From contig CBDDEI010000002.1 in assembly GCA_965226775.1 (NCBI GenBank), positions 18,479 through 82,478 on the forward strand: a DNA stretch of 64,000 nt, written 5' to 3'. Position 1 is the first letter of the stretch; every line of letters starts with the position of its first letter. The notes under the pieces are model-generated. The model ran no database searches. It was not told where the DNA came from and worked only from the letters and a program-made list of their open reading frames with translations. This document shows positions 1-23,336 of the stretch, piece after piece. The position numbers and the translations under genes are program-made. Source of the stretch: Dehalococcoidia bacterium. GTDB lineage: Bacteria; Chloroflexota; Dehalococcoidia; SHYD01.

Positions 1-2427
1 CGAGGGAACCCCGCTGACCGCTACTCTGGACGATCCCGACTTCGTCGTCAGTGGCAGCGCCACCTGGGCTTGGGCGGGTTCCCCGAACGGCAGCTCCTCC
101 TCCTGGACCCCCATCAATGGGGCAACCTCAGCCAGCTACACGCCGGTTCCCGCCGATGTGGGCCGCTACCTGCGGGCCACCGCCTCCTACACCGATGGAG
201 AAGGGTCGGGCAAGAGCGCCCAAAGGGTCTCGGCCAATAGGGTGCAGCCAGCGCCTGTGGAGCCGAATGAGCCGCCCGAGTTCCCGCTCACCGAGACCCG
301 TGCGCGCGACGTGGACGAGAACACGCCGGCGGGCGAGGACATCGGCGAGCCCGTCGCGGCCACCGACCCCGAGGGCGACACCCTGACCTACTCCCTGGAC
401 ACTGCCGGCGCGGAGTCCTTCGACATTGGCTCCACTACGGGCCAGTTGCAGACCAAGGCCGCCCTGAACTTTGAGACTACGCCCAGCTACAGCGTAACCG
501 TAACCGCCACCGACACCGGCGCCGCCACCGATACCATCATCATCACCATCACCGTCAACAACCTCGAAGAACCCGGCACGGTAACGCTGTCGTCCCTGCA
601 GCCCCTGGTCGCTATCCCGCTCACCACTACGCTGGACGATCCCGACGTCGTCAGTGGCAGTGTGACCTGGTCGTGGGAGCGTTCTCCGGACGGCACCTCC
701 TCCTGGACCCTCATCAGTGGGGCAACCTCAGCCAGCTACACGCCGGTTCCCGCCGATGTGGACCGCTACCTGCGGGCCACCGCCTCCTACACCGATGGAG
801 AAGGGTCGGGCAAGAGCGCCCAGGCTATCTCCGCTCACGCGGTGGAGCTGGCGCCGGGAAGGAACGCACCAGTGTTCACTGAGGGCGCCAGTACAACCCG
901 CAGCATCCCGGAGAACACACCCGCGGGTAGGAACATCGGCGCACCCGTCTCGGCCACCGACCCCGACAACGACCTCCTAACCTACAGCCTGGGCGGCCCC
1001 GACGAGGAGTTCTTCGACATTGATGCGTCCTCCGGCCAGTTGCAGACCAAGACGGCCCTCGACTACGAGAGCAAGTCCAGCTACTCAGTCACCGTGTCGG
1101 TCAGCGACAGTAAGGACGCCGACGGCAACCCTGACACGACCACGACAGTACGATCGCGGTGACGATTCTTGTCACCACTGTCACCACCACAACCACCACC
1201 ACAACGGGTGGCGGTGGCGGCGGAGGAGGAGGCCGCGGCCGCTCTACTCCAACGCCGAGCCCGACGCCTACACCGAGCCCAACGCCTACGGCGACACCTA
1301 CCCCTACCGGACCGCAGTTCTCCGGCTTGATTGCCGCTGAGCCCAGCGTGACCGGGATGGTGGTCCCTGAGGGCGCAACCTTGGGCCTCAACGGCGGCGG
1401 AGACCTGCCAGGCGGCGTCTACCTGAACTTCCCGCCCACCGCAGTGGCCTTGCCAGTGCACGTGAGCGTCTCGGTGAGCAACGACCGCGCCAGCGATGTG
1501 GAAGCGCCCAGCGGCACTACCTTGCTGCCCTTGACCATCAACATCACTCCGGAAACTCCCCTCACCCTGGGCGAGCCGCTGACCATTGAGATAAACCCCA
1601 CGCCGGAACAGCTGGAGGCCGCAGGCGGTGACCTGAACAACCTCGCCGTGGGCGTGGTGACTCCCAACGGCATTGTGGTGCTGCCCGCGAAGGTGATGCA
1701 CGGCAGGCTGGTGGTGACCACCGACCGCATCGCCCCCTTCGTCCTGCTTGCCATCACGGACACCGGCCCAGTTCTGACCCAGCCGCCTATGGGCGATGCC
1801 TCGTCTATGGGCCCGCTGCTGCAGTGGACCCAACCGCCGCGCACTACCTGGTTCCAGGTGCAGGTGATCCCCTTCAACGAGGACGGCCCCGGCATCAACC
1901 TGGTTATCGGCGACGGCGCGCTGGTGCGCGGCGCGCAGTACCAGGTCCTGGGCCCCAACTTCGGCAGCGCTGACCCCAACTACGTGATGCTGCCCGATAT
2001 GACCTACCTCTGGCGGGTGCGCACTACCACGGTGCTGACGAACCCGACGGAGGCAGACTGGAGCGCGTGGGCGGTGAGCAGCTTCAAGACGCCGCCTGCC
2101 AGCAGCAGCACCATCACCCCGGTGGCGCCGCCGGCCTTTGGGGAGGTGAGCACGCTCACCCCAACGTTGACCTGGGCGAACTCCAACACCGCCGTGTTCT
2201 ATTACGAGGTGCAGGTCAGCAAGGACTACGAGTTCGGGCCGAACGCCTTCCTCTACAGTGAGTACGTCCACGGCGGAGCCAGCACCCCGCCCAACAGCTA
2301 CGTGGTGCCGGCAGCCTTCCCCCTAGAGGCAGGCGAGATCTACTACTGGCGCGTCCGGCCGCGGATTCAGGGCGACGGCGACCCGCTGCCGTGGAGCGCC
2401 ACCTACGTGTTCCTGGCGCCAGGATAG
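1..2427 (+). CDS. Surface protein 1 (5'-partial): cadherin/Ig-like repeats, Thr/Gly/PT linker and shared C-terminal module; apparent -1 frameshift near 1144
   Basis: ORFs 158-1162 and 1159-2427 join if the G missing at CACG^ACAG (compare the near-identical copy near 8655) is restored. Cadherin motifs ENTPAG..IGAPV.ATDPD and LDYE..SY.VTV are present. Confidence 0.8.
1309..2427 (+). repeat. Copy 1 of a ~1.12-kb C-terminal module (other copies at 4225-5345, 9525-10645, 17958-19082)
   Basis: Four near-identical copies running from GPQFSG to WSATYVFLAP; similarity extends ~25 nt past the stop codons. Confidence 0.95.
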
Positions 2428-2541
2428 GGCGCAGACGAGCAGACGAGCAGACGAGTGTTGCCCCGGCGCGCGGACACGGTGCTGCACTACTTTCGGCTCA
2501 ACATTGCCCAGACCACTATATAAACATAGGAGTGTAACCTG

Positions 2542-5345
2542 ATGCGTAAAAGAATCTTCACGAGCACGATTGCCGCTCTGGCCCTCTTTGCCGTTGTTGG
2601 CCTTGTTGCCGCCCTCGCGCCCTCTATTGCATCGCTAAACCTGGCCCGCGCCCACTCCGTGACGGAGGCTGCCCTCACTGCGCTAACGGTGACCGCAGGG
2701 GGGACGACGCAGACGCTCTCCCCGGCGCTCAGCAGCACGGTGCATTACTACACGGTCCCCGTGGCCGATACTGTGACCCAGATCACCATTGCGGCCACGC
2801 CGTCCGGCGACGGCACGGTAGCCTATGAGGAGGCCGATGAGACGGCGCTCCCGGACGCCGACGCGAACACCCCCGGCCAGCAGGTAGACATCCCCACGGC
2901 CGGCAAGCGCATCAACGTAGTGGTAACCCATACCGACGCCGGGGTGATGATGGTAGAGACCTACGGCGTGCTGGTGATCCGCCATGGCCCGGCGGTACCG
3001 GACACGATCGTGCTCATGGCGCTGTACAACTACGCGGGCGGCGAGGACTGGACGAACAGCACCGACTGGGGGAGCACTGAGCCCCTCAACACCTGGTATG
3101 GCGTCAGCACGAACTCCGACGGCCGTGTCATACAGCTGGCCCTTAGTCAAAACAACTTGGTCGGAATCCTGCCGACCGCGTTGGGCAATCTCGACCAGAT
3201 GACGACTCTGAATCTGTGGGGCAACCAGTTGAGCGGGACAATCCCAGACCTGACCCGCCTCACCAGCCTGCTGGAGCTGTGGTTGAGCGATAACGCGTTG
3301 AGCGGGACGATCCCAGCCTCGCTGAACAGCCTCACCACCCTGACGCAACTGCACCTGGACAACAACCAGTTGAGCGGGCCGATTCCAGACCTGAGCAGCC
3401 TCACCAGACTGAAGCAACTGTCCCTGCGGAACAATGAGCTGACGGGAGAGATCCCGGCTTGGCTGGGCGACCTCGCCGCCCTGGAGTTACTGTACCTGAA
3501 GAGCAACCAGTTGAGCGGGGACTTCCCAGAAGAGCTGGGCATGCTCAGCCAGCTGAAGGCCACACGCTTCGCGAGCAATAAGGACGCCGACGGCAACCCT
3601 ACGTTGACCGGGTGCGTGCCCCATGGGTTGCGCTATCTCGTGGCCGCCGAGGAGTTTTCGGCGGGCTTCCCAGCCCAGGACTTCATCGCGGTGGACGCGA
3701 ACGGGGACGGCGACACCGATGACCTTGACGATACTCCCGGCCTGAACCTGCCGTTCTGCATGCTGAGCGCGTTGGACCTCAGCGACGTGACCCTCGATCC
3801 GTCCTTTGCCAGCGGCACTGTGGCCTACACCGCCGATGTGGCCAACACCGTGGCAGCCACGACGGTGACGGCGACGTTGTACAACTTCGCTGACACCATC
3901 TCCATCATGAAGGGCGCGGACACCTACATGAGCGGAGACCCGGTGCCGCTCAACGTGGGGGAGAACGTGATCACCATCAAAGTCACCCCTGCGGACAGCA
4001 CCCCTGTGCACACCTACGAGGTGACGATCAACGTCACCACCACAACCACCGCTACCGCCACCGCCACTGCCACTGCCACTGCCACTGCCACCGCCACTGT
4101 CACCACCACAACCACCACAACCACCACCACAACGGGTGGCGGTGGCGGAGGAGGCCGCGGGCGCGCTACTCCAACGCCAACGCCTACACCGAGCCCAACG
4201 CCTACGGCGACACCAACCCCAACCGGACCGCAGTTCTCCGGCAAGATTGCCGCGGAGCCCAGCGTGACCGCAACGGTGGTTCCCGAGGGCGCCACCCTAG
4301 GCCTTAACGGCGGTGGAGACCTGCCAGGCGGCGTCTACCTGAACTTCCCGCCCACCGCCGTGGCCTTGCCGGTGCACGTGAGCGTCTCGGTGAGCAACAC
4401 CGCGCCAGACGATGTGACAGCGCCCAGCGGCACTACCCTGCTGCCCTTGACCATCGACATTACGCCGGAAACTCCCATCACCCTGGGCGAGCCGCTGACC
4501 ATCGAGATTAACCCCACGCCGGAACAGCTGGAGGCCGCAGGCGGTGACCTGAACAAGCTCGCCGTGGGCGTGGTGACTCCCAACGGCATTGTGGTGCTGC
4601 CGACGCAAGTAATGCACGGCAGGCTGGTGGTGACCATCGACCGCCTCGCCCCCTTCGTCCTGTTGGCGGTCACGGATCCAGGCCCGGTCCTGAGCAGCCG
4701 CCTATGGGCGATGCCTCCTCCATGGGGCCGCTGCTGCAGTGGACCCAACCACCGAAAACTACCTGGTTCCAGGTGCAGGTGATCCCCTTCAATGAGGACG
4801 GCCCCGGCATCAACCTGGTTATTGGCGACGGCGCTCAAGTGCAGGCCGCGCAGTATCAGGTCCTGGGCCCCAATTTCGGCAGCGCTGACCCCAACTACGT
4901 GATGCTGCCCGGCATGACCTACCTCTGGCGGGTGCGCACGGCCACAGTGCTGACGAACCCCACGGAGGACGACTGGAGCGCGTGGGCGGTGAGCAGCTTC
5001 AAGACGCCGCCAGCCAGCAGCAGCACCATCACCCCGGTGGCGCCGCCGGCCTTTGCGGAGGTGGGCACGCTCACCCCAACGTTGACCTGGGCGAACTCCA
5101 ACACCGCCGTGTTCTACTACGAGGTGCAGGTAAGCAGGGACTACGAGTTCGGGCCGAACGCCTTCCTCTACAGTGAGTACGTCCATGGCGGAGCCAGCAC
5201 CCCGGCCAACAGCTACGTGATACCAGCAGCCTTCCCCCTAGAGGCAGGCGAGATCTACTACTGGCGGGTGCGGCCGCGGATTCAGGGCGACGGCGACCCG
5301 CTGCCGTGGAGCGCCACCTACGTGTTCCTGGCGCCACCGGGATAG
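2542..5345 (+). CDS. Surface protein 2: signal peptide, cadherin-like beta-sandwich, plant-type LRRs, second beta-sandwich and shared C-terminal module; frameshift near 4695
   Basis: RBS AGGAG upstream; hydrophobic N-terminus ending in ARA; repeats LxxLxLxxNQLSGxIP; DANGDGD Ca-loop. ORFs 2542-4782 and 4704-5345 join by comparison with the paralogs. Confidence 0.8.
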
Positions 5346-5393
5346 GGCGCAGGCGAGCAGACGAGCGTTGAGTTAGGAACATAACGTTACTCC

Positions 5394-8300
5394 ATGGGTA
5401 AAAGAATCTTCACAAGCACGGTGGCCGCACTCGCCCTCTTTGCGGTTGTTGGCCTTGTTGCCGCCCTCGCGCCCTCTATTGCATCGCTAAACCTGGCCCG
5501 CGCCCATACCGTGACGGAGGCTGCCCTGAGCGCGCTGACGGTAACCGCGGAGGAGACGGCGCAGACGCTCTCGCCGGCGTTCAGCAGCACGGTGACTGAC
5601 TACACGGTCGCCGTGGCCGACACCGTGACCCAGATCACCATCGAAGGCACGGCGGACGGCGACGGCACTGTGGCCTATCAGAACACGGACGGGACGACGC
5701 TCACGGACGCCGACACGAGCGTCGACGGCCAGCAGGTGGACATCCCCGCGGCGGGCGACAAGTCCATCAACGTGGTGGTGACCCATACCGACAGCGGGAC
5801 GGACGACGCAGACCTACGACCGTGCTGGTGAGCCGCGAGGGGACGGACGACACGTGCGACGGAATAGTCTACAACTCAACGCCGACGGCGGTGGAGGTGG
5901 ACGCCGTCCCGATCGTGGTCGAGTCGACGACCGCGGACTACTTCGTGCTCTATGTGCGACCTGACCTGGAAGCTGATCGCGAAATCCCGGTCTCGGTGAC
6001 GTTGGGAGAGGACGGCGAGACGACCCTGACGGATCAGCTCTCAGCTCTTCCTGTTGAGCACTACAGGGTGGAGAAATACCCCGTCGACGACCCTGGAGAT
6101 GTTGACCTTGACTGCATCCACGACATCGATGAGCTTGCGGACATGGGAACTATGAACCCGTTCAACCGCGCCGCGCCGATTGACCCGGACGTCGCCAACC
6201 TGCGCCTCCGTAACGGCACTATCGCAATTCCCGATCGCGAGACCTTCGAACAGCTCTCTTACCAAGGTACCGATGTGTGGATCGATCGTCATCTCACCAA
6301 TCTGGAGTTCGTCAAGTTCTTCCTCATCCTTATGAATACCGACCGGCCGGGGGTCTATTTCATGAACACGGTGATGCACCGGTGTCACTGCTATTTTGCC
6401 GCCGCTGTCGCTTTTCCATCCATCGGGGTGATGCGCGGCGAGATCGTGTACCACCCCAACATCGTTGCGCCTGACGGCTCGCTGGGCGTCTACCGCTTTG
6501 AGTTCGAGCCCAGGGATGCCTACCCCTTTGAGACTGTGCAATATGCTTATGAGGTGCTGGCCGCCAGCATGCCGCTGCTGGAGAACAACCTGGCCTACTA
6601 CCCAATGCCCGCTGCCGCGCTGCCGCTCTACCACAGAGAGCGGGCGAGCTATGACAACTCGCGGGTCAATGTGTTGTTTGAAGAAGATATCTTTCCTGAT
6701 GTCGCTTTCCTCTCCCTCAACAAGGGGACTGGGTACGGGTTGCTGCGGGTCATGTCACAGGATGAACGGCCTAATCCTCGCGATGTCGTGATCTATGAGT
6801 CGCTGCCCAACGAGTTATCCCGCGTCGCCGGCATCATCACCAGCGTACCCCAAACCCCACTCTCGCACGTCAACCTGCGCGCGATTCAGGATGGCGTCCC
6901 CAACGCCTTCATACGCGGCGCCCTCGACAAGCCCAAAATCGATGCGCTCATCGACCGCTACGTCCACTACACGGTGACCGCGACCGGATACACCATCCGA
7001 GCGGCCACTAGGACAGAAATCGACAATCATTTTGCGTCGTCTCGGCCCGCCCAGCCGCAGACGCCGCAACGGGACCTCTCGGTCACTGTGATCACTCCCC
7101 TTAGTCAGCTCGGCTTCGACGACTGGGATGCCTTCGGCGTAAAGGCGGCCAACGTGGCTGTCCTAGGAACGCTGGGGTTCCCGGATGGGACGGTCCCCGA
7201 CGGGTTCGCGATCCCGTTCTACTTCTACGATGAGTTCATGAAGCACAACGACTTCTACACCCGCATCGAAACCATGCTGGCCGACTCCGACTTCCAGACG
7301 GACTACGGCACGCAGGAGGAAGAACTGAAGGAACTGCGCGATGCGATCAAGGACGGGACCACGCCGGACTGGATCATCACCGCGCTGGAGGAGATGCACG
7401 CGGAGTTCCCGGACGGGACTTCGCTGCGTTACCGGTCCAGCACGAACAACGAGGACCTGCCCGGGTTCAGCGGCGCTGGGCTGTACGACTCCAAGACCCA
7501 GGACCCCGACGAAACCGAGGAAGACGGGATTGACAAGTCGATCAAGGGAGTGTGGGCGAGCCTGTGGAACTTCCGCGCCTTCGTCGAACGCGACTTCCAC
7601 CGCATCGACCACAACGCGACGTCGATGGGCGTCCTGGTGCACCCCAACTACTCGGACGAGCTGGCCAACGGCGTCGCCGTCAGCTTCGACCCTGTCTACG
7701 GCCGAGACGGCCACTACTACGTCAATAGCCAGCTAGGGGAAGACCTGGTCACCAATCCCGACGCACTCTCCCTGCCAGAGGAACTCCTATTGAGCCCGAA
7801 TGAGGGGGGAGACGTAGTTCTTGCCACCTCGAACCAGGTGGCGCCGGGGCAACTCCTGATGAGTGACGCCCAACTGACACTGCTGCGCGCACACCTCCAA
7901 GTGATCCATGACGAGTTCAAGAAGCTGTACAAACCCGGACCCGATGAACCGTTCGCCATGGAGATCGAGTTCAAGATCACCAGCGAGAATATCCTGGCCA
8001 TTAAACAGGCCCGCCCCTGGGTCTTCGGCGTCGCCTCGGCGGTGTTGCCAAACCGGGCGCCAGTGTTCACGGAGGGCGCGAGTACATACCGCATCGTGGC
8101 CGAAACCACCGCTTCGGGCGTGAACATAGGCGCGCCGGTCGCGGCCAGCGACCGAGATAGCGACGCGCTGACCTACTCCCTAAGCGGGGCCGACGCAGAC
8201 TCCTTCGACATTGATGCGTCCTCCGGCCAGTTGCAGACCAAGACGGCCCTCGACTACGAGAGCAAGTCCAGCTACTCAGTCACCGTGTCGGTCCGCGACA

Positions 8301-10645
8301 GCAAGGACGACGAGGGCAACCCTGACACGACCACAGACAGTACGATCGCGGTGACGATTCTTGTCACCGAAGTCAACGAAGTCCCGGTGTTCCCGTCGGC
8401 GACGGCCACTCGCACGATCTCGGAGAACACGCCCGCGGGCGTGAACATCGGCGCACCGGTGGCGGCCACGGACCCGAACAGCGGCGACACTTTGACCTAC
8501 TCCCTAGGCGGGACCGACGCAGACTCCTTCTACATTAATTTTACATCGGGCCACTTGCTGACCAAGACGGCCCTCGACTACGAGAGCAAGTCCAGCTACT
8601 CAGTCACCGTGTCGGTCCGCGACAGCAAGGGCGACGAGGGCAACCCTGACACGACCACGGACAGTACGATCGCGGTGACGATTCTTGTCACCGAAGTTAC
8701 CAAAGTCACCAAAGTCCCGGTGTTTCCGTCAGCGACGGCCACTCGCACGATCCCGGAGAACACGCCCGCGGGTAGGAACATCGGCGCACCCGTCTCGGCC
8801 ACGGACGCCGACAACGACCTCCTAACCTACAGCCTGGGCGGCCCCGACGAGGAGTTCTTCGACATTGATGCGTCCTCCGGCCAGTTGCAGACCAAGACGG
8901 CCCTCGACTACGAGAGCAAGTCCAGCTACTCAGTCACCGTGTCGGTACGCGACAGCAAGGACGACGAGGCTACAGCGACCACCGTGTCGGTCGCGCGACA
9001 GCAAGATCGCGATGACAACCCTGACTCGACCACGGACAGTACGATCGCGGTGACGATTCTTGTCACCGAAGTTACCGAAGTTACCGAAGTCCCGGCGTTC
9101 CCGTCAGCGACGGCCACTCGCACGATCCCGGAGAACACGCCCGCGGGTAGGAACATCGGCGCACCCGTCTCGGCCACCGACGCCGACAACGACCTCCTAA
9201 CCTACAGCCTGGGCGGCCCCGACGAGGAGTTCTTCGACATTGATGCGTCCTCCGGCCAGTTGCAGACCAAGACGGCCCTCGACTACGAGAGCAAGTCCAG
9301 CTACTCAGTCACCGTGTCAGTCCGCGACAGCAAGGACGACGAGGGCAACCCTGACACGGCGATTGACGCCACGACCCGAGTGACAATCAACGTCACCACC
9401 TCCACCACCACTACAACGGGCGGCAGCCGCGGTGGCGGCGGGCGGTGGCGGCGGCAGCGGCCGCGCTACCCCAACCCCAACGCCTACACCGAGCCCAACG
9501 CCTACGGCGACACCAACCCCTACCGGACCGCAGTTCTCCGGCTTGATTGCCGCTGACCCCAGCGTGACCGCAACGGTGGTACCCGAGGGCACCACCCTGG
9601 GCCTCAACGGCGGTGGAGACCTGCCAGGCGGCGTCTACGTGAACTTCCCGCCCACCGCAGTGGCCTTGCCGGTGCACGTGAGCGTCTCGGTGAGCAACGA
9701 AGCACCGAGCGACGTAGTAGCGCCCAGCGGCACTACCTCTGCTGCCGCTCACCATCAACATCACCCGGAAACTCCCCTCATCCTGGGCGAGCCGCTGACT
9801 ATTGAAATCAACCCCACGCCGGAACAGCTGGAGGCCGCAGGCGGTGACCTGAACAACCTCTCCGTGGGCGTGGTGACCCCCAACGGCATCAGTTGTGCTG
9901 CCCGCGCAGGTGCTGCACGGCAGGCTGGTGGTGACCACCGACCGCATCGCCCCCTTCGTCCTGCTTGCAGTCACGACCCCGGCCCGAGTTCTGACCCAGC
10001 CGCCTATGGGCGATGCCTCCTCCATGGGGCCGCTGCTGCAGTGGACCCAACCGCCGCGCACTACCTGGTTCCAGGTGCAGGTGATCCCCTTCAATGAGGA
10101 CGGCCCCGGCATCAACCTGGTTATCGGCGACCGCGCGCTGGTGCGCGGCCGCGCAGTACCAGGTCCTGGGCCCCAACTTCGGCAGCGCTGACCCCAACTA
10201 CGTGATGCTGCCCGATATGACCTACCTCTGGCGGGTGCGCACTACCACGGTGCTGACGAACCCCACGGAGGACGACTGGAGCGCGTGGGCAGTGAGCAGC
10301 TTCAAGACACCGCCAGCCAGCAGCAGCACCATCACCCCGGTGGCGCCGCCGGCCTTTGGGCAGGTGAGCACGCTCACCCCGACGTTGACCTGGGCGAACT
10401 CCAACACCGCCGTGTTCTATTACGAGGTGCAGGTTAGCAAGGACTACGCGTTCGGGCCGAACGCCTTCCTCTACAGTGAGTACGTCCATGGCGGAGCCAG
10501 CACCCCGCCCAACAGCTACGTGGTGCCGGAAGCCTTCCCGCTAGAGGCAGGCGAGATCTACTACTGGCGGGTCCGGCCGCGGATTCAGGGCGACGGCGAC
10601 CCGCTGCCGTGGAGCGCCACCTACGTGTTCCTAGCGCCGGGCTAG
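5394..10645 (+). CDS. Surface protein 3: signal peptide, beta-sandwich, PEP/pyruvate-binding (PPDK_N, ATP-grasp) domain, four cadherin repeats and shared C-terminal module; several apparent frameshifts
   Basis: N-terminus near-identical to protein 2; motifs FGVKAAN, VPDGFAIP, RYRSSTNNEDLPGFSGAGLYDS and MEIEFK..IKQARP. Indels near 5800-5820, 9430, 9740-9765, 9890 and 10148 relative to the paralogs. Confidence 0.75.
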
Positions 10646-10673
10646 GGCAGAGGCCGGCAGCCGCGCGTTGAGT

Positions 10674-10702
10674 AAGGAGGGGGCCTGATGGCCTCCTCCT
10701 TT
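10674..10702 (+). terminator. Hairpin/terminator after surface protein 3 (related copy at 19104-19131)
   Basis: AAGGAGGGGGCC-TGAT-GGCCTCCTCCTT inverted repeat. Confidence 0.55.
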
Positions 10703-10906
10703 CCTTGGTAGCGTTTTTGATGGGCAGATAAAGTAAGGTGAACTGCTGGTTAGCGGGCGAGCCTATGTACCCCAGCCGCAGGCCAGAAACTACACAGTAA
10801 TTGTCACGATGGCGGCCTATGTGCACACATCATGTATACCTAAGGGCTGTATCATGGACTATATATAATCTAGGGATATTATTTAGGGCCATACAGGTGG
10901 AGTGAA

Positions 10907-11683
10907 ATGAGAAAGCTCATTGTCCTGCTGACCATAGTTGCCCTTGAATCAAGCGTGATGACGGTCCTGGCCGGATGCGGATCGCCTACACCGACGGACC
11001 AGCCCGCTGCAGCGCCCACGGAGACCACATCCCCTCTCCTGAAACCCACCGCCACCGTAGCTACTCCTCTCGTGGATGACTCCGTGTCTACACCAACTCC
11101 CGCGTCGTCTGCCAGCGACGGGATTGAATTCACGCCCGTCGACTCATTCGGATCTTCCAAGAAACAGGACCCTATAACGGTTGCTGATCAGGATTCTCCC
11201 CAGAAGGATGGCCCCGGCGCTACCGGCCCTGTCCAGGGTGACCCCTACACCTGGCAGGACGGCGACAGGACCATGACGGTGATGCTTCAGGCAGACCTGG
11301 TAGTCGAGAAAGACTCCGGCGGATTGCCTCGTGACGTCGTTTCAGCCAACGAGGGTGGAACTAACGTTGTCAGGAGTGCGGATGCACAATCGAACAGTGC
11401 TACCCTGCCCGTCTTTCGCGCGGAGTCCGGCGCGCTGATGACCCTCCCCGGCAGCGTTCTGCTGGTGCTCAGCTCTGAATGGAGCCAGGCGGAAACGAAC
11501 GCCTTTTTCTCCAACAATGGGATCAAGATGGACCGCGTGTCGGAGTTGGGCTACGTCGCTAACGGCTTCTTCGTTGAAACTGAACCAGGATTCCCCTCGC
11601 TGGACCTCGCCAACGCCCTGGCAGTGCAGGACGGTGTGGAAATCTCCAGCCCCAACTGGGGAAAAGAATCCACCCCGAAGTGA
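10907..11683 (+). CDS. Lipoprotein with a C-terminal subtilase prodomain/external-chaperone-like domain
   Basis: Lipobox LAGC, Pro/Thr/Ser linker, and a C-terminal domain ending LANALAVQDGVEISSPNW typical of S8 prodomains; lies directly upstream of a subtilase. Confidence 0.65.
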   Translation: MRKLIVLLTIVALESSVMTVLAGCGSPTPTDQPAAAPTETTSPLLKPTATVATPLVDDSVSTPTPASSASDGIEFTPVDSFGSSKKQDPITVADQDSPQKDGPGATGPVQGDPYTWQDGDRTMTVMLQADLVVEKDSGGLPRDVVSANEGGTNVVRSADAQSNSATLPVFRAESGALMTLPGSVLLVLSSEWSQAETNAFFSNNGIKMDRVSELGYVANGFFVETEPGFPSLDLANALAVQDGVEISSPNWGKESTPK

Positions 11684-11762
11684 TTGTTGCCCGTGCATAC
11701 CACCGGTTGTTGTGACCCACTGTTCCCGTGAACGCTAACGTCTCTTCAGCGTCATCCATCCC

Positions 11763-14700
11763 ATGACCAGGATGTTCAGTCCGGCCAGACTGCTGCCGGC
11801 GGCGGGATGTGCCCTGCTCTGCCTAGTGCTGGCCCTGAGCTACGCCAGCGCGCAGACTCCTCCTGCCGCGCCTACCATCGACTCTGTAACTTCTGGCGAT
11901 ACCTCACTTACCGTGGCCTGGACCGCTCCCGCCGGCGAGACCGGCATCACGGCCTACGACGTGCGTCACATCGAGACCAGCGCGGATGAGACGATGGACT
12001 CCAACTGGATCATCAAGGACAACGCCTGGACATCCAGCGCGCTGCAATATACCATCACCGGCTTGACCAACGGCACGGAGTACGACGTGCAGGTACGCGC
12101 GGTAAACTCTCACGGAGACGGGACCTGGTCAGACATCAAGACCGGTACGCCGGCACTCCCTGCTCCCATTATAGATTCCGTGCGTGCCGATGACCGAGCC
12201 GTGCTGGTTTCCTGGAGCGCACCCACCGGCATCACCACCGGAGTCTCGGCTTACGACGTGCGCTACATCGAGACCAGCGCTGATAAGACGATGGACTCCA
12301 ACTGGACTGTGGAGGAGGACGCCTGGGAAGAGGGCGACGGCAGCCTGGCCTACGCCGTCACCGGCCTGACCAACGGCACGGAGTACGACGTGCAGGTGCG
12401 CGCGGTGGACGAAAAAGATGTCGACGGCGCCTGGTCGGCCACAACCAGCGCAACTCCCGCGGACCACGGCAACACCCAGGCAGCAGCCACTACCGTCTCT
12501 CCTGGCGCCAGAGTGTGGGGAGCCATTGACCCCGCCGACGATGAAGACTACTTCAGCTTTAGTGTGTCAAGGACAGCCGATTACTGGATATATACTTTAG
12601 GCGACCTGGATACCGTGGGTGAGCTGCTGGACGGTGACGGCATGTCCATCGACATCAGCGATAGAGGCTCCGTGCTGCCCAACCCGGACAACTTCTTCCT
12701 GTGGCAAAGACTCCAGTCCGGGACGTACTACATCAAGGTAACCGGCTACGGATCTACTGACGAACCATATGTCCTTAGGATCAGGGAGTTTAGGGACACA
12801 ACTTCAAGGAGCAACGCGGCCACTCTGAATCTCAACGGCTCCGCAAGCGCCACCATAGACCCGGAAGACGACGAAGACTACTTCAAGCTGGAGCTTTCCG
12901 AGACAACGGAAGTTGCCATTCGCGCCTCCGGGTACCCAGACACCGTTGGTGAGCTGCAAAGGAGCAACGGCACGGTAATTGCCTCCAACGATGACGGCTT
13001 TCTCTCTGGCGGCTGGACGAACTTTCTCATCCGGGAGAGCCTAAACGCCGGGGTGTACTACGTCAAGGTCAGCTCTTTCGCAAGTAGTTCCGATGGTCCA
13101 TACACAGTATATGCTACGGCTATAACCGAGCCGGGCAGCGCCATCGCCGACGCTCAGCCGCTGACCCTCGGCGGTACCGCAGGCGGAATCATAGACCCGG
13201 CCGGCGACGAGGATTACTTCAGCCTGACCCTCGAAGAGACAACGTACGTGATAATCGGTGGAGCGGGCGAAGTCGTTAATATCAGCGGCGATCTGACCGA
13301 TGAAAACGACCTCGCTGCCCCGGTAGACTCAGTTCACTTTAACCACTTATTCTTCTTCCAGGGCAGATTGGACGCGGGCACATACTACTTGAAGGTGACG
13401 GGCAAGGACGCCACGGAAACAGGGCGTTACACCGTCAGGGCTATTGTGGAGAGCAGCTACACTTATTTTGTAAACCGCTGCTCCAACATCCCAACCAGCA
13501 GCAGCATCAACGACCCGCTCTACGGATGCCAGTGGCACCTGAAGAACAATGACCAGTTCCGCAACAGTGGTGGGCATGACATACGCGTCGAGGAGGTATG
13601 GCCCACCTACACAGGCTCCGGCATCAACGTGGCAGTGGTGGACGATGGAATGCACTACTGGCACGAGGACCTGACCGGCAATGTCCTCACCTCCTTCAAT
13701 CACAACTATGACCCCGACCTGACCGACATCTACCATCCATTCGAGGACCACGGCACCGCGGTGGCCGGGCTCATCGCGGCGAAGGACAACAGCCTTGGCA
13801 TGCGCGGCGTAGCCCCCGAGGCCAAGATATACGGTTACAATTATCTGGTGGTAGATACCGTGGCCAACGCGGCGGACGCAATGTCTCGCAACGCGGCGAC
13901 CACGGCCATTTCCAACAACAGCTGGGGGCCTGGGGATTACGGTCGCCCGGAACCTGCCCCTGAGCTGTGGGAGACTGCGGTCAAGCATGGCGTCACCACC
14001 GGATACGACGGGAAAGGCGTCTTCTACGCCTGGGCTGCCGGCAACGGAGGAGACCGCGACGACTACTCCACTCTGGACGAGTTAGCGAACTTCTATGCCG
14101 TGACGGCCGTCTGCGCTGTCGGGCACGACGACATTAGAAGCGACTACTCGGAAGCAGGCGCAAACCTGTGGGTGTGCGGGCCGTCCAGCAGCGGGAGGGA
14201 TGGCCAGCCCCGAATAGCCACCACCGATAACGGACACCGGTATAGGGGCAGTTTTGGCGGCACCAGCGCCGCCACTCCCATCGTATCCGGCGTCGTCGCG
14301 CTGGTGCGCGAGGCCAACAGCGCGTTGACGTGGCGGGACGTCAAGCTCATCCTGGCGGCCTCCGCCCGCAAGAACGACCCAGATAACACCGGCTGGGTGG
14401 AAGGCGCTTTCAAGTACGGGTCGAGCACGGACCGCTACAACTTCAACCACGAGTACGGCTTCGGCATGGTGGACGCCAAGGCAGCCACGGACCTGGCTCC
14501 GGGCTGGACCAACGTCCGCGACTTGAGGGAAATCACCTCCGAATCCGGCGTCATCAACCTGCCAATCCCCGACTTCCCGTCATCCGGTACGCCTACCACC
14601 GTAACCACCAACCTGACCATCGACCCGTTTGTGGAGTTCGTCGAGTTTGTGGAGGTCAACGCCCACTTCTTCCACGCTAACTTCCGGGACCTGACCGTTG

Positions 14701-17700
14701 AGCTGGTCTCGCCCTCAGGGACCGTTTCAACGCTGTCCACTACCGCCCTTAGATTCGGGTCGTTGACCTACAAGTTCCGCTTTGGTTCGGCCCGCCATCT
14801 GGGCGAGGACGCGGCCGGCGAGTGGACGTTGCGGATTAAAGACCTGGAAAGAGTTGATACAGGAGCTCTCAGGTCGTGGGGTCTCACCATTTACGGTCAT
14901 GGCTTCGTTCCCGGCGAGCCTGAAATCGACGTTGTGACTCCGGGAGGAGGCACACTCGAAATTGACTGGAAAGCGCCGACCGACACAGGGGAAACGGCCA
15001 TCACGTCCTACGACCTGCGCTATATCCGAGATGACGTCACCGACAGGAGCGATGACAACTGGTCTGTGGTGACGGGCGTGGGGACGCCGAGCAACCGGAG
15101 CTACACCATCACCGGACTGAGCGGCGGAGTTAAGTACGATTTCCAACTCCGCGCCCACAACGATTCCGGACACGGCCCCTGGTCCCTAGGGGAAGCTGAC
15201 GAGCCCACCACGGTCAAGCCGGCCGCACCGGCCATTACCGACGTCACTCGCAGCGATAGGACACTGGCGGTCGTCTGGACGGCCCCCGCTGACACGGGTG
15301 GCGGGGTCACAGCCTACGACGTGCAGTACATCGAGACCAGCGAAGACGAGACGATGGAAGCCAACTGGACGGTACGGGACAACGCCTGGAGAAGCGGTGA
15401 CCTTAGATATATCATCTCCAATCTCACAAACGCGACGGAGTACGACGTACAGGTGCGGGCCGTCAACTCCGCGGGGGATGGAGCATGGTCTGACACAGAG
15501 ACCGGCACTCCGCTGCCGGACGACATACCCATAACGTTGCAGTGGGAAGAGACCTCTATTGAAGTGGCCGAGAACGCCGGGAGCATAGTCCTGAGGGCAG
15601 TAGTCACAACCACACTGGACGCGCCGCCGGAGGCTGACTTCACCTTCGATGTGACACTGACCACCACCGATAGCGGCACGACCCAAGGCGACGACTACAC
15701 GGCTCCGCCTTCGTCCGCAACCTTTGTCGCGAGCGACTTCAGCCAGACCGACGTGAACGGCCAGCAGCGCTACCGCGCCACCAGGGATTTCACCGTGGCC
15801 ATCATAGACGACACAGCGGATGAATCGAATGAATCATTCAGGGTAAGGCTGGCCTACCTGACTCCCGGCCTTACACATCTCCAGGGAGGCCCCTCTACCG
15901 CAGTCGTCACAATCCAGGACAACGAACACGTTCCAGTTACTCTCAGCTGGGAACAGCCGGATCTAACGGTCAGTGAGAACGCCGGAAACGCCACCCTGCG
16001 CGCTTACGCCATCACCACGGTGGACAAGCGGCCTGAAGACGGGTTCGCCTTCGACGCCTCCATCTATACGTCTGACGGCAGCGCGACCCAGCCCGGCGAC
16101 TATACGCGGGTGGACGATACCGTCACTTTCAGCCGGACCGACTTCAGCCGGGTAACCATCAACGGCGAACGACGCTATCGCGCCGCAAAGCAAGTGCCGG
16201 TGCCCATTCAGGATGACACATCCGACGAAGACGAGGAGGACTTCACGGCAACCATTGAGTACGCGAATCCCGGCCCGCTTCACCTGCAGGGCGGACTAGC
16301 CACTATGAGCGTAAAGATCACCGACAATGACTTCGTACCCGTCACCATCAGCTGGGACCAGTCGTTCGTGAGCGTCGACGAGGATGCGACAACGGTCACC
16401 CTGCAGGCCAGGGCTACCACCACGTCGGACAAAATGCCGGAGAGCGGTTTCACCGTCGCGCTGTCCGCGGCGACGGCCGGCGACACCGCCACCCGAGGCT
16501 CGGACTATCGGAGGCTGACCAGCAACTTCCGCTTCAGCCAGGGCGACTTCACGCGCGTAGAGGTGGGGGGCCAATTCCGCTTCCAGGCAACCAAGGACAT
16601 CAGCGTCTCCATCATCAATGACACCGCCGACGAGCCGGACGAGGACTTCACGGTAACCCTGAGCTACTCCAACCCAAGCCTCCCTCATCTACAGGGAGGT
16701 CCTGCCACTACGACGGTGACCATTACTGATAACGACCACGTGCCCGTGGTCCTGAGTTGGGAGCAGGCGGCGGTGACGGCCGAAGAAGCCACGAGTCCTG
16801 GGAGCACGCGCCCCGTCTCCCTGCGCGCAGTCGCCGTCACCACCAAGGACAAGATGCCGGAGAGCGGCTTCACCTTCGACGTAACCGTAGCCACCGCAGA
16901 CGGCAGCGCAACCCAGCCCGCCGACTACCAGCAGTTGTCCGACACGGCGACCTTCAACCGGAGTGATTTCAGCCTGGCGACCATCAGCGGCCTGCGGCGT
17001 TACCGCGCGGTGAAGACCTTCACGGTATTAGTCACTCACGACACCCTCCAGGAACCCAACGAGACCTTCACGGTGACCCTGAACTACGCCGACCCCAGTC
17101 TGCCGTACCTGCAAGGTGGAAGGGACACGGCGACGGTGACCATCACCGACGATATATCATCTACCGTGGACTTGAGTACAACGGTATTCGGCTCGCCCTT
17201 CCGTGTCTCCCGGAGCGAGGAGTTGACCTACAACTACACCGTCAGTAACTCCGGCCCGGCTGCTTCGACAAACACGGTTGTGAGGAGCACGCTCAACCGG
17301 GGCGTGAGCTTCGTGTCGGCTACTCCCGCTGACAAGTGCGCCCACTCGGGAGGAGCGACCGGCGGCGTGGTCACCTGTACGTTTGACACCCTGGATGCGG
17401 GCGCAAGCGAGGCAGGCGAGATCGTGGTGCAGGTCGGGCCAGCGGCATCCGCGGACATCGCCATTACCTCCATAGCCACTGGCGGCGAGCTGGACCGCAG
17501 TCCGGGGGACAACACGGCCACCGCGTTCACCGAACTCCTTGCCCCGCCCGAGCAGGTGACGAATCTGTCACCTGCTCGGAGCGGCGTCGATTTCATCGAA
17601 CTATCGTGGGCCACGCCCGTAGACAATGGCAGCCCCATCACCCGTTACGAGCTGGAACGCAAGGAGGCCGGCGAGAGCTATGTCCCCATCAATCCCGGAC

Positions 17701-19082
17701 CTAGCGCCGCGGCTACAACGTACCTGGACAGCCAGGTGCCGGCTGGAACGACCTACACCTACCAGTTGCGCGCCGTCAACGCCGACGGCGACGCCGAATG
17801 GTCCAACGAGGCGACTGCAACCGCTAGGGAAACCCGGCCTCCACCTACTCCTGGGCCGCGCGGTGGCGGCGGAGGCGGTGGCGGAGGCCGCTCTGCCCAA
17901 ACGCCGAGCCCAACGCCAACACCGAGCCCTACGCCGACGGCGACACCGACCCCTACCGGACCGCAGTTCTCCGGCTTGATTGCCGCGGAGCCCAGCGTGA
18001 CTGCAACGGTGGTTCCCGAGGGCACCACCCTCGGCCTTAACGGCGGTGGAGACCTGCCAGGCGGCGTCTACGTGAACTTCCCACCCACCGCAGTGGCCTT
18101 ACCGGTGCACGTCAGTGTCTCGGTGAGCAACGAAGCACCGAGCGACGTAGTAGCGCCCAGCGGTACTACCCTGCTGCCGCTCACCATCGACATCATCCCG
18201 GAAACGCCCCTCACCCTGGGCGAGCCGCTGACTATTGAGATAAACCCCACGCCAGAACAGCTGGAGGCCGCAGGCGGTGACCTGAACCACCTCGCCGTGG
18301 GCGTGGTAACTCCCAATGGCATAGTGGTGCTGCCCGTGCAGGTGCTGCACGGCAGGCTGGTGGTGACTATCGACCACCTCTCCACCTTCGTCCTGCTTGC
18401 AGTCACGGACCCCGGCCCGATCCTGACCCAGCCGCCGATGGGCGATGCCTCGTCTATGGGGCCGCTGCTGCAGTGGACCCAACCGCCGCGCACTACCTGG
18501 TTCCAGGTGCAGGTGATCCCCTTCAACGAGGACGGCCCCGGCATCAACCTGGTTATCGGCGATAGCGCGCAAGTGCGCGCCGCGCAGTACCAGGTCCTGG
18601 GCCCCAACTTCGGCAGTGCTGACCCCAATTACGTGATGCTACCCGATATGACCTACCTCTGGCGGGTGCGTACTGCCACGGTGCTGACGAACCCTGAGGA
18701 GGCAGACTGGAGCGCATGGGCAGTGAGCAGCTTCAAGACCCCACCGGCCAGCAGCAGCACCATCACCCCGGTGGCGCCGCCGGCCTTTGGGCAGGTGAGC
18801 ACGCTTACGCCGACGTTGACCTGGGCGAACTCTAACACCGCCGTGTTCTACTACGAGGTGCAGGTAAGCAGGGACTACGCGTTCGGGCCAAACGCCTTCC
18901 TATATAATGAGTACGTGCATGGTGGAGCGAGCACCCCGACCAACAGCTACGTGGTACCGGCAGCCTTCCCGCTAGAGGCAGGCGAGATCTACTACTGGCG
19001 GGTGCGGCCGCGGATTCAGGGCGACGGCGACCCGCTGCCGTGGAGCGCCACCTACGTGTTCCTGGCGCCCGCCGGCCAGTAG
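11763..19082 (+). CDS. Surface protein 4: kexin/furin-like S8 serine protease with Fn3, PPC-like, P-domain, Calx-beta-like and DUF11-like domains and the shared C-terminal module
   Basis: Intact 2439-aa ORF with signal peptide; catalytic motifs VAVVDDG, HGTAVAG, WAAGNGG and GGTSAATP; LTWRDVKLIL; P-domain GEWTLRIKD. Confidence 0.9.
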   Translation: MTRMFSPARLLPAAGCALLCLVLALSYASAQTPPAAPTIDSVTSGDTSLTVAWTAPAGETGITAYDVRHIETSADETMDSNWIIKDNAWTSSALQYTITGLTNGTEYDVQVRAVNSHGDGTWSDIKTGTPALPAPIIDSVRADDRAVLVSWSAPTGITTGVSAYDVRYIETSADKTMDSNWTVEEDAWEEGDGSLAYAVTGLTNGTEYDVQVRAVDEKDVDGAWSATTSATPADHGNTQAAATTVSPGARVWGAIDPADDEDYFSFSVSRTADYWIYTLGDLDTVGELLDGDGMSIDISDRGSVLPNPDNFFLWQRLQSGTYYIKVTGYGSTDEPYVLRIREFRDTTSRSNAATLNLNGSASATIDPEDDEDYFKLELSETTEVAIRASGYPDTVGELQRSNGTVIASNDDGFLSGGWTNFLIRESLNAGVYYVKVSSFASSSDGPYTVYATAITEPGSAIADAQPLTLGGTAGGIIDPAGDEDYFSLTLEETTYVIIGGAGEVVNISGDLTDENDLAAPVDSVHFNHLFFFQGRLDAGTYYLKVTGKDATETGRYTVRAIVESSYTYFVNRCSNIPTSSSINDPLYGCQWHLKNNDQFRNSGGHDIRVEEVWPTYTGSGINVAVVDDGMHYWHEDLTGNVLTSFNHNYDPDLTDIYHPFEDHGTAVAGLIAAKDNSLGMRGVAPEAKIYGYNYLVVDTVANAADAMSRNAATTAISNNSWGPGDYGRPEPAPELWETAVKHGVTTGYDGKGVFYAWAAGNGGDRDDYSTLDELANFYAVTAVCAVGHDDIRSDYSEAGANLWVCGPSSSGRDGQPRIATTDNGHRYRGSFGGTSAATPIVSGVVALVREANSALTWRDVKLILAASARKNDPDNTGWVEGAFKYGSSTDRYNFNHEYGFGMVDAKAATDLAPGWTNVRDLREITSESGVINLPIPDFPSSGTPTTVTTNLTIDPFVEFVEFVEVNAHFFHANFRDLTVELVSPSGTVSTLSTTALRFGSLTYKFRFGSARHLGEDAAGEWTLRIKDLERVDTGALRSWGLTIYGHGFVPGEPEIDVVTPGGGTLEIDWKAPTDTGETAITSYDLRYIRDDVTDRSDDNWSVVTGVGTPSNRSYTITGLSGGVKYDFQLRAHNDSGHGPWSLGEADEPTTVKPAAPAITDVTRSDRTLAVVWTAPADTGGGVTAYDVQYIETSEDETMEANWTVRDNAWRSGDLRYIISNLTNATEYDVQVRAVNSAGDGAWSDTETGTPLPDDIPITLQWEETSIEVAENAGSIVLRAVVTTTLDAPPEADFTFDVTLTTTDSGTTQGDDYTAPPSSATFVASDFSQTDVNGQQRYRATRDFTVAIIDDTADESNESFRVRLAYLTPGLTHLQGGPSTAVVTIQDNEHVPVTLSWEQPDLTVSENAGNATLRAYAITTVDKRPEDGFAFDASIYTSDGSATQPGDYTRVDDTVTFSRTDFSRVTINGERRYRAAKQVPVPIQDDTSDEDEEDFTATIEYANPGPLHLQGGLATMSVKITDNDFVPVTISWDQSFVSVDEDATTVTLQARATTTSDKMPESGFTVALSAATAGDTATRGSDYRRLTSNFRFSQGDFTRVEVGGQFRFQATKDISVSIINDTADEPDEDFTVTLSYSNPSLPHLQGGPATTTVTITDNDHVPVVLSWEQAAVTAEEATSPGSTRPVSLRAVAVTTKDKMPESGFTFDVTVATADGSATQPADYQQLSDTATFNRSDFSLATISGLRRYRAVKTFTVLVTHDTLQEPNETFTVTLNYADPSLPYLQGGRDTATVTITDDISSTVDLSTTVFGSPFRVSRSEELTYNYTVSNSGPAASTNTVVRSTLNRGVSFVSATPADKCAHSGGATGGVVTCTFDTLDAGASEAGEIVVQVGPAASADIAITSIATGGELDRSPGDNTATAFTELLAPPEQVTNLSPARSGVDFIELSWATPVDNGSPITRYELERKEAGESYVPINPGPSAAATTYLDSQVPAGTTYTYQLRAVNADGDAEWSNEATATARETRPPPTPGPRGGGGGGGGGRSAQTPSPTPTPSPTPTATPTPTGPQFSGLIAAEPSVTATVVPEGTTLGLNGGGDLPGGVYVNFPPTAVALPVHVSVSVSNEAPSDVVAPSGTTLLPLTIDIIPETPLTLGEPLTIEINPTPEQLEAAGGDLNHLAVGVVTPNGIVVLPVQVLHGRLVVTIDHLSTFVLLAVTDPGPILTQPPMGDASSMGPLLQWTQPPRTTWFQVQVIPFNEDGPGINLVIGDSAQVRAAQYQVLGPNFGSADPNYVMLPDMTYLWRVRTATVLTNPEEADWSAWAVSSFKTPPASSSTITPVAPPAFGQVSTLTPTLTWANSNTAVFYYEVQVSRDYAFGPNAFLYNEYVHGGASTPTNSYVVPAAFPLEAGEIYYWRVRPRIQGDGDPLPWSATYVFLAPAGQ

Positions 19083-19919: not shown

Positions 19920-20336
19920 AAGGCTTCTGCTTTAGTCAAGCAGGACCATCAAAGGGCAAGCAATTCCAGCGGGGGCAGTCAAATTCTTCAAAATAACGGC
20001 CGAAGCATCGACGAAGGCCTCGAATACACGTTGACTGAAGCTCTCCTGGATACCCCGGCTTTTTTGATTTGAAAGAGATTGGCGGAGAAGTACGAATCGT
20101 CTTCAATTATGATGCACCCGGCTTATCGGGTCATTAAAGATTCCTTTAACAAGGGAGCGGATAATCTTTCGTCTTCCAGTTTCTCGGCAACTGTTTTGCT
20201 GCTTCAGGCGTGGGCTGACTTCGAGAAGCTCCAGCCGGATGGGGCAGGGAAATATCAAGCCCAAGAAGTCCGAGAAGACGGGGGGCGGTTAGGTCGAGAA
20301 ATCTTGGCTGCTGCCCGGGTCGATGCGAATGACTAG
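19920..20336 (+). pseudogene. Truncated hypothetical gene upstream of the PLD gene
   Basis: The frame of ORF 20079-20336 stays open upstream beyond an in-frame TGA at 20070; its end overlaps the start of the PLD gene. Confidence 0.4.
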
Positions 20337-21270: not shown

Positions 21271-21376
21271 AACGCGCTACTATCCCAGCAGACAACGAAG
21301 GGCGATCTAGCGAAGTAGTTAGCTTTCTACGATGCCTCGAATTGCGGCGAAGAATCCTCACTCTCCTCTTTAACAC

Positions 21377-22287: not shown

Positions 22288-22294
22288 CGGACTT

Positions 22295-23193: not shown

Positions 23194-23200
23194 TGTGAAT

Positions 23201-23336
23201 ACCTTGACAAGGTTCTTTGGAGACCAAACAGACGGCTTAGGAGGTCATTAGGCACGGATTTTCCTGAAAAACACCGCTTGACAGGAGAATCTTGTCAAGG
23301 TGCAGGCTTGAAGCAACTAGAGCTTCAAGCTTTTTT
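23201..23336. promoter_or_regulatory. Operator/promoter region upstream of the primase gene
   Basis: Palindrome ACCTTG-A-CAAGGT (23201-23213), inverted repeat CTTGACAGGA/TCTTGTCAAG (23277-23299) and hairpin GCTTGAAGC..GCTTCAAGC plus T6 (23306-23336). Confidence 0.5.

Follow-up and report, generated by a model that had tools for sequence, protein, structure and literature searches.

Four same-strand genes at the start of a 64,000-nucleotide stretch of a Dehalococcoidia genome (contig CBDDEI010000002.1, positions 18,479 to 82,478; the whole stretch is called the window here) each end in one repeated sequence of about 1.1-1.2 kb, and the locus raises the question of what a shared C-terminal module does on proteins whose remaining parts are unrelated. 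An earlier note on this DNA had taken the module for one undescribed C-terminal unit serving envelope attachment. Part of that description stands, since the tail is indeed shared by unrelated cargoes; the single undescribed unit does not, since residues 1-150 fall, by their modelled fold, into the described MAIN (Microbial Autoproteolysis INducing)/GAIN_B/ZU5 class of hinges, and it is residues 151-374, a tandem Fn3 pair, that follow this hinge to the C-terminus. We propose that these proteins combine exported cargo, a MAIN-type hinge and retention through the Fn3 pair, an explanation that, taken as a whole, we hold to be modestly probable.

The module starts at positions 1309, 4225, 9525 and 17958, just as previously described, and our repeat search returned six families (D1-D5 and D8), each with four copies in direct orientation, which together span 1211-2231, 4127-5146, 9427-10449 and 17860-18880. 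The mean column identity of the four module copies is 92% in a MAFFT alignment; most module segments are 82-97% identical to the reference copy, and in three ungapped families the indels of copy 3 bring its identity down to 62-63%. To call the copies nearly identical at the DNA level is an overstatement: for the six copies with an open module frame in this genome (2.42 Mb in two contigs, 97% complete), the synonymous divergence (dS) is 0.22-0.65 and the ratio of non-synonymous to synonymous divergence (dN/dS) is 0.11-0.38, so the likeness reflects mainly constraint at the protein level. The cargo assignments of the earlier note are borne out by Pfam, which finds Cadherin and Big_9/Ig-like repeats in gene 1, LRRs with a Cadherin-like domain in gene 2, PPDK_N (an ATP-grasp-fold dikinase domain) with four cadherin stretches in gene 3, and Peptidase_S8 with P_proprotein, the P-domain of kexin/furin-type proprotein convertases, in gene 4. 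The translations also agree with it on the linkers: a Gly run and (P-T/S)n precede the module in all four genes, joined by a Thr run in three of them. Hydrophobic N-terminal leaders can be read by inspection in genes 2, 3 and 4.

The gene 4 module was modelled by AlphaFold2 with a 52-sequence alignment, giving a three-domain model (predicted local distance difference test 94.2, predicted template modelling score 0.87), and the model together with its VIA-align fold matches supports the proposal of a ZU5-like domain followed by two Fn3-like repeats. The hinge domain (17958..18407, plus strand; module residues 1-150) is a predicted beta-sandwich of the ZU5/GAIN_B-like, MAIN-type form. In an exhaustive VIA-align comparison, residues 5-154 superposed on ZU5/GAIN_B structures with Z 9.5-10.4 and a root-mean-square deviation (rmsd) of 3.0-3.6 over 122-134 aligned residues, the matches including the ankyrin ZU5 structures 3ud1_A (Z 10.4, rmsd 3.2, 131 residues) and 3f59_A (Z 10.3), which together span rmsd 3.0-3.2 and 122-131 residues, and the GAIN domains of CD97 (9mqr_A, Z 10.3), BAI3 (4dlo_B, Z 9.8) and CELSR1 (8vy2_A, Z 9.5). 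The model places the gene 4 motif D-H-L-S-T-F in the turn between the last two hinge strands (133-138 and 143-149), where GAIN and ZU5 domains have their HL/T or HF/S autoproteolysis site; its His-Leu-Ser (18375..18383, plus strand) corresponds to module residues 140-142 and protein residues 2205-2207, with the predicted scissile bond between Leu and Ser. At this motif column H-[LFV]-[ST] occurs in 33 of the 51 distant and 40 of the 64 close homologues that have a residue there, typically as DHFTKF or DHLSKF. Foldseek against the Protein Data Bank (PDB) returned only generic multi-Fn3 matches at TM scores of about 0.2-0.4, and no Pfam or NCBIfam family matched the module above threshold, the only sub-threshold match being Ig_Rha78A_N; a word-index homology search with the hinge alone returned close relatives only. 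Similarity to ZU5 at the level of sequence is marginal: the Pfam ZU5 model matches 2 of 52 family members weakly (best E 0.0081) and the window copy not at all. By modelled fold, by motif and by architecture, the first 150 residues are an autoproteolytic hinge of the MAIN/GAIN_B/ZU5 type, a class already described.

MAIN domains are GAIN_B-like, with YfkN of B. subtilis as prototype, and the main text of the preprint describing them (Brogan & Rudner, bioRxiv 10.64898/2026.05.12.724683) reports that those with HX(S/T) cleave themselves in vitro and in vivo while the fragments remain associated. The order it gives for MAIN proteins is signal peptide, adhesion or enzyme domains, MAIN domain and surface anchor, the last being a sortase signal, a wall-binding domain or SLH, and its cargo includes cadherin-like, LRR and fibronectin-like domains. 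Chloroflexota and Dehalococcoidia occur nowhere in that main text. ZU5, GPS and Nup98 were united, and ZU5 was noted in large bacterial surface proteins, in the account of Zhang et al. (2012, PMC3482391); our literature search returned no other paper dealing with bacterial GAIN/MAIN hinges, nor any that treats an Fn3 pair as an anchor. The proteins studied here resemble MAIN proteins in being large and several per genome, and in running from a leader through adhesion or enzyme domains (hydrolases included) to a beta-sandwich hinge with HX(S/T) before its last strand and then to a C-terminal element. They differ in that this element is an uncharacterised Fn3 pair instead of a sortase signal, a wall-binding domain or SLH, and in that about one third of this subfamily lacks the catalytic His and Ser in proteins that are still intact. 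With the eukaryotic GAIN domains of adhesion G protein-coupled receptors (GPCRs) and the ZU5 domains of PIDD, UNC5 and ankyrin, the hinge shares the fold (Z 9.5-10.4), an HL/S- or HL/T-type site before a hydrophobic last strand (here S-T-F-V-L-L-A-V; HF/S is also found in GAIN/ZU5), and cadherin and LRR ectodomains upstream; unlike the GAIN of adhesion GPCRs, the module has no GAIN_A helical subdomain, no Cys-rich GPS motif and no seven-transmembrane domain. The system belongs with the MAIN surface proteins by fold, motif and architecture, and the one descriptive feature that it lacks is a known downstream anchor. By analogy with these proteins, self-cleavage of the His-Leu-Ser copies is likely, and membership in this class gives a third of the module a known role, release, that is not anchoring.

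Genes 1-3 of the window read D-R-I/L-A-P-F where gene 4 has its motif, with neither His nor Ser retained. In gene 1, Arg-Ile-Ala lies at about 1726-1734 within a hinge domain at 1309..1758 (plus strand), which is probably ZU5/GAIN_B-like as judged from the gene 4 model; gene 2 has Arg-Leu-Ala at about 4642-4650, and gene 3 again has Arg-Ile-Ala. Across the genome there are seven His-Leu-Ser (HLS), seven R-x-A and one R-L-S copies. The R-x-A copies group together in a single clade (support 0.985), which extends over four classes of cargo; live and dead versions both occur in the dikinase class and in the LRR-cadherin class, and the three S8 genes are all live. One copy, c15, groups with a live copy by its hinge part and with a dead copy by its Fn3 part (0.972), and is therefore a recombinant mosaic. 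The state of the hinge is uncoupled from the cargo, and the dead hinge had a single origin and then spread. All dead-hinge genes of this genome are broken. Among the five intact modules of a genome from the same genus, however, two have dead hinges and one has a His-to-Gln change, and 19 of 48 complete modules of close relatives carry a dead hinge; the dead form is therefore a maintained variant and not just a product of decay.

The remainder of the module, residues 151-374 (18408..19079, plus strand, in gene 4), consists of two Ig_Rha78A_N-like Fn3 domains, which we propose to be the cell-proximal retention or binding element, and the gene 4 protein ends three residues past their last strand. 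VIA-align gave the tenascin Fn3 pair 1qr4_B as the best match of the pair (Z 12.1) and aligned the second domain with the N-terminal domain of an alginate lyase (3a0o_A, Z 10.7, rmsd 2.6). PF25788 (Ig_Rha78A_N) matches 49 of the 52 aligned relatives at E <= 1, at best 1.9e-10, and gives 23.5-26.9 bits on the window copies against a gathering threshold of 27.4. In sequence family each half of the pair resembles PF25788, the Ig/Fn3-like N-terminal domain of rhamnosidases of glycoside hydrolase family 78, and the fold match is to the N-domain of the alginate lyase Atu3025 (3a0o). It departs from PF25788 in forming a fixed tandem pair with strongly conserved motifs of its own on cargo that is not a glycosidase, and the window copy falls just under the Pfam cut-off (25.1 versus 27.4 bits). 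A search of the ESM Atlas with the pair returned Ig_Rha78A_N-type or unnamed clusters only and gave no functional lead, and prediction of a homodimer of the pair found no support.

The pair is the more strongly conserved part of the module. Its identity to the query is 51% versus 27% for the hinge, and higher than that of the hinge in each of 26 distant homologues; 48 of its 220 columns are at least 90% conserved, compared with 1 of 140 in the hinge, and its dN/dS is 0.07-0.26, compared with 0.15-0.63. It is also used more widely. In eight further genes of the genome the pair occurs by itself, at 40-50% identity; in every case it lies at a terminus, and a Pro-Thr-rich linker divides it from a partner, these partners reading as an S8 protease, a PQQ-dehydrogenase-like protein, PD40 and YVTN propellers, a nuclease-like protein and others; one protein of the genome has three pairs in tandem. 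Copy c08 (C2:964264-966705; C2 denotes coordinates on the 2.36-Mb contig) is among the family members with three tandem pairs after one hinge, and in its same-genus counterpart the hinge His is replaced by Gln. A HMMER scan of 1.84 billion representatives gave 570 clusters at E <= 0.001, and positions were tallied on 247 proteins. Strong matches to the pair are present in all ten genomes of the same order, 5-38 in each; of 31 genomes from other families of the class, 8 have weak matches only and 23 have none, and the more distant carriers are mostly labelled as metagenome-assembled genomes (MAGs) of Dehalococcoidia or Chloroflexi. Matches of 37-44% identity were also seen in MAGs labelled Aenigmatarchaeota, Microgenomates and Gammaproteobacteria, which may reflect horizontal transfer or binning contamination.

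The strict C-terminal position foreseen by the earlier note holds for the composite of hinge and pair, which takes the C-terminal place in 47 of 48 close matches and in 24 of 26 distant ones, and not for the pair alone, for which the distant matches comprise 81 C-terminal, 41 N-terminal and 15 internal cases. A second counting rule gave 42 N-terminal pairs, 37 of them directly behind Met and a hydrophobic leader, and six proteins in which the pair is nearly stand-alone. These positions bear on the idea, whose sorting part was raised in that note, that a dedicated machine reads the module as a C-terminal signal for secretion or sorting and then removes it or attaches it, in the manner of a type IX secretion system (T9SS) C-terminal domain, a sortase or an exosortase signal. 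The extreme C-terminal place of the composite and the restriction of the module family to one lineage speak for such a signal, as does the Ig-like sandwich, which is also the fold of the T9SS C-terminal domain. The pair at N-terminal (41-42 proteins), internal (15) and tripled positions argues against a C-terminal sorting signal and agrees with a binding domain able to function at either terminus, as SLH or LysM do. Moreover, at 372 residues the module far exceeds known signals, no NCBIfam sorting-domain model matches it, the genome has no sortase match, and no conserved partner gene was seen beside the copies, a lipoprotein-like open reading frame (ORF) near some of them being tied to the S8 cargo and not to the module. 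We consider a sorting signal very improbable. As for the T9SS domain in particular (Por_Secre_tail), the sole trace of TIGR04183 in gene 4 is a sub-cut-off match of 18.3 bits at residues 523-555, well before the module, and this candidate was set aside.

Whether the pair anchors the proteins is the central question. Nothing but the Fn3 pair follows the hinge: there is no transmembrane tail and no LPxTG with a hydrophobic tail, and the module has no SLH match, as the earlier note had observed. The 97%-complete genome has no sortase or SLH match either, so anchoring through SLH or sortase was rejected; penicillin-binding proteins (PBPs) are present in the genome. The pair occupies the slot in which MAIN proteins carry their anchor, and this position together with its unusual conservation makes anchoring by the pair a reasonable deduction. 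Still, by analogy with MAIN proteins, we put the chance that the pair anchors proteins on the envelope at about even, or a shade below. In monoderm bacteria, SLH triplets, CWB2 and LysM are non-covalent wall-anchoring modules found at either terminus of unrelated exported proteins, sometimes in tandem, typical of a lineage and more conserved than the cargo. The Fn3 pair resembles them in its use at either terminus, its occasional multiplication, its confinement to a lineage and its conservation relative to the cargo, and differs from them in that it has no sequence or fold relation to them and that its binding is only proposed.

The kinship of the pair also suits a different account, in which it is not an anchor at all and serves as a spacer, as an aid to folding or solubility, or as a binder of an external ligand such as a host or matrix polymer or a substrate, in the manner of carbohydrate-binding modules (CBMs) and Fn3 domains on secreted hydrolases. 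The proteins would then be released, and cleavage would yield two-chain secreted proteins. Glycoside hydrolases are the source of the nearest sequence family, Ig_Rha78A_N, an alginate lyase N-domain (3a0o_A, Z 10.7) is the structure that best matches a single domain, and the succession of pair, Pro-Thr linker and enzyme resembles that of CBM, linker and catalytic domain; the internal and stand-alone pairs, and the sortase that accompanies the pair in eight of eight other genomes of the order, agree with this account as well. It fits less easily with the degree of conservation (48 of 220 columns at least 90% conserved, dN/dS 0.07-0.26), which is rare in plain spacers, or with the range of partners, as a protease, nuclease-like and dehydrogenase-like proteins, propellers, LRR/cadherin adhesins and a dikinase-like enzyme are unlikely to share a single substrate; and a self-cleaving hinge would have no evident use unless one side were held, as in the model given in the main text of Brogan & Rudner. 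We regard a non-anchoring pair as unlikely, and continue with retention of the proteins by the pair.

On that explanation, each protein would be exported via Sec; it consists, in order, of a hydrophobic leader, variable adhesion or enzyme cargo, a Thr/Gly/Pro-Thr linker, the hinge, the tandem Fn3 pair and the stop. Proline-rich wall-spanning regions adjoin the anchors of Gram-positive surface proteins, and by analogy the linker may be an extended stalk that marks the cell-proximal end. A live hinge, as in gene 4, would undergo self-cleavage at the Leu2206-Ser2207 bond through an N-O acyl shift; its last beta-strand would remain embedded in the sandwich, so that the cargo half and the tail half (the strand and the Fn3 pair) would be held together non-covalently and could yet be pulled apart, force or denaturation freeing the cargo. 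With a dead hinge, as in genes 1-3 (Arg-Ile/Leu-Ala), the link would be permanent. The Fn3 pair would be the cell-proximal element with a non-covalent hold on the envelope, and the lineage uses it at either end of many other exported enzymes.

Several points weigh against this explanation. The pair is internal in 15 distant matches and stand-alone in up to six; the earlier note had named arbitrary or stand-alone occurrence and a known non-anchoring role as grounds for giving up an anchoring module, and half of this has been found, in that the pair alone does occur at other positions and nearly stand-alone and the composite almost always keeps to the C-terminus. A sortase is missing only in this genus and is present in all eight other genomes of the order that carry the pair; it follows that the pair does not simply make up for the loss of a sortase system, and a general rule that the pair takes over where sortase is lost was rejected on the same count. 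The nearest family of the pair, as far as its sequence tells, comes from glycosidases. Should the long hydrophobic segments at the N-termini be membrane anchors that are not cleaved off, the tail would lie distally and not proximally. A Z of about 10 for a beta-sandwich is good, yet not unique, and a PDB sequence-profile search with the family alignment gave no match at E <= 1. The catalytic motif is missing in 18 of 51 distant homologues and in 24 of the 64 close ones, which, with the intact dead-hinge genes, indicates that the family can do without release. With three of the four genes broken, a working four-cargo array is not on display in the window. Finally, the analysis shows the fold, the motif with its position, the architecture, the conservation across the family and the independence of hinge state from cargo, and it is from these that cleavage and envelope binding are inferred.

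The broken genes call for a closer look at the copies. A tblastn search found 15 full copies of the module and a sixteenth cut by a contig end: seven are in tandem at the start of the large contig, of which the window holds the last four, six are near its end and three lie elsewhere. Of the four tandem genes described earlier, the adjacent module tails are confirmed, but only gene 4 is uninterrupted and the array exceeds four. The 2.36-Mb contig itself starts (C2:752) and ends (C2:2364793-2364918) inside module copies; if these ends join, 13 module genes would lie in one region of about 100 kb, the assembler having evidently broken in the repeat. The module frame is open in 6 of the 15 copies, namely in all three outside the two end clusters and in 3 of 12 within them, and a single frame from leader to stop is found only in gene 4 and the dispersed copies c09 and c10, leaving 12 of 15 full copies not intact.

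Gene 1 is represented in the window by its 3' part (2..2427, plus strand), with cadherin/Ig repeats at 2-1162, the linker at 1159-1308, the module at 1309-2424 and the stop at 2425-2427; a leader-like match places its start about 3.3 kb upstream of the window. Its frame changes at about 1159-1162, between cadherins and linker, so that the ORFs 2..1162 and 1159..2427 are in different frames, and the module itself is an open frame. Gene 2 (2542..5345, plus strand) encodes a hydrophobic leader, the Cadherin-like domain, LRRs, a Thr/Ala/Gly/Pro-Thr linker and the module from 4225, and a 1-nt deletion at about 4694 within the module divides it into the ORFs 2542..4782 and 4704..5345. The true start of gene 3 (5394..10645, plus strand) is at 5394. 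A leader and Cadherin-like start (5394-5830) shared with gene 2, as repeat family D11 and the translation indicate, precede PPDK_N, four cadherins, the linker and the module from 9525; the frame changes at least six times, at about 5800-5820, within the linker and at nucleotides 213, 240, 366 and 621 of the module. The PPDK_N/dikinase-like cargo of this gene (5822-9556) and of copies c09 and c11 is unusual in an extracellular protein. Gene 4 (11763..19082, plus strand), the only uninterrupted ORF among the four, encodes 2439 residues comprising a leader, two fn3 domains, PPC-like repeats, Peptidase_S8 with the P-domain (about 13614-14891), fn3, four Calx-beta domains, DUF11, fn3, a Gly/Pro-Thr linker and the module. 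Of this family, the window shows one working gene beside decayed or mis-assembled paralogues.

The array may accordingly be mostly non-functional, either as a recently expanded tandem family in decay, with pseudogenes, or through long-read consensus errors in a repeat region; we put this at slightly less than an even chance, and it is compatible with a retained, self-cleaving product of gene 4. Several observations suggest real decay. The indels of the modules are mostly outside homopolymers, and gene 3 and copy c11 have the same +T; no split is seen along the 7.3 kb of gene 4 or in about 30 kb of housekeeping ORFs from the rest of the window, of which 14 of 17 tested match Pfam at E <= 1e-5; and the same-genus genome has five full modules, all open and each with at least 1000 open codons upstream, compared with the 15 of this genome. 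Artefact is suggested by the large contig beginning and ending within module copies, by the contrast between non-cluster and end-cluster copies (3 of 3 versus 3 of 12 open), and by the 16 of 64 close homologues in other assemblies that are truncated or frame-shifted. The split of a gene elsewhere in the genome points the same way: a PBP (transpeptidase) gene at C2:1928196-1929129 is divided into two overlapping frames at a non-homopolymer site, as a pseudogene or by an assembly indel, and this bears on the trust to be placed in the module-gene frameshifts. Whichever holds, gene 4, c09 and c10 are whole from leader to stop and the open modules are under purifying selection, so the module family as such is functional.

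Public sequencing data do not settle the origin of the frameshifts, as the best run contained 0.48 of the sampled words and the data over the window consist of short Logan contigs of related populations that fit paralogous copies too; as a hint, the contigs of one run have +AC behind position 5801 and -1 at 5818, and the resulting net +1 would bring both frames of gene 3 back together at that point. Copies c03 and c13 contain in-frame TGAs, for which an alternative genetic code was rejected because they sit between compensating insertions of 1-2 nt, and antigenic-variation cassettes or programmed frameshifting found no support, the indels being scattered and different from copy to copy. In copy c12 (C2:2299020-2306358), the S8/P-domain and the N-terminal fn3/PPC parts are 100% identical to gene 4 in protein sequence over 450-530 residues, and its module differs from that of gene 4 and has four deletions; this suggests a very recent segmental duplication whose tail has evolved, or been assembled, differently.

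Directly upstream of gene 4 is an ORF of 258 residues (10907..11683, plus strand) with a lipoprotein-like leader ending in LAGC and with no match in Pfam or NCBIfam; its C-terminal half may resemble a subtilase propeptide or I9 inhibitor. Two paralogs found by tblastn, at C2:2298189-2298961 and C2:2327817-2328590, are 87-98% identical to it, one of them frameshifted, and a 258-residue ORF of this kind lies just upstream of all three giant S8/kexin-like genes in the genome. Directly downstream of gene 4, the window contains integrative-element-like genes (20323-29937), including PLD-like and DUF3854/DUF927 genes and a large serine recombinase (28070-29473), which adjoin a tRNA gene (26462-26533, minus strand) and the RNase P RNA gene (29588-29937).

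This work records which window genes are frameshifted, tells hinge and Fn3 pair apart, describes how the pair is distributed, where in proteins it sits and how well it is conserved, and traces the dead hinge to a single origin and its later spread; these points are new. For annotation, the lesson is that three of the four "genes" of the window are not intact in this assembly. To our knowledge, little is established about how Dehalococcoidia hold their surface proteins, and in the present case an unstudied domain pair, used on many other exported enzymes of the lineage, stands where a newly described class of releasable surface proteins has its anchor. We tentatively suggest, as a possibility clearly short of even, that the tandem Ig_Rha78A_N-like Fn3 pair is a new non-covalent envelope-anchor family of Dehalococcoidia, a counterpart of SLH and CWB2 usable at either terminus and present in hundreds of exported protein clusters, and that with live or dead MAIN hinges it would allow releasable (His-Leu-Ser) or permanent (Arg-x-Ala) display from one tail moved between cargoes by recombination. 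The live and dead hinges on the same cargo classes are a natural experiment on the purpose of self-cleavage, and if the pair binds the envelope, it would constitute a new anchoring system and a handle for surface display or fluorescent tagging of uncultured cells.

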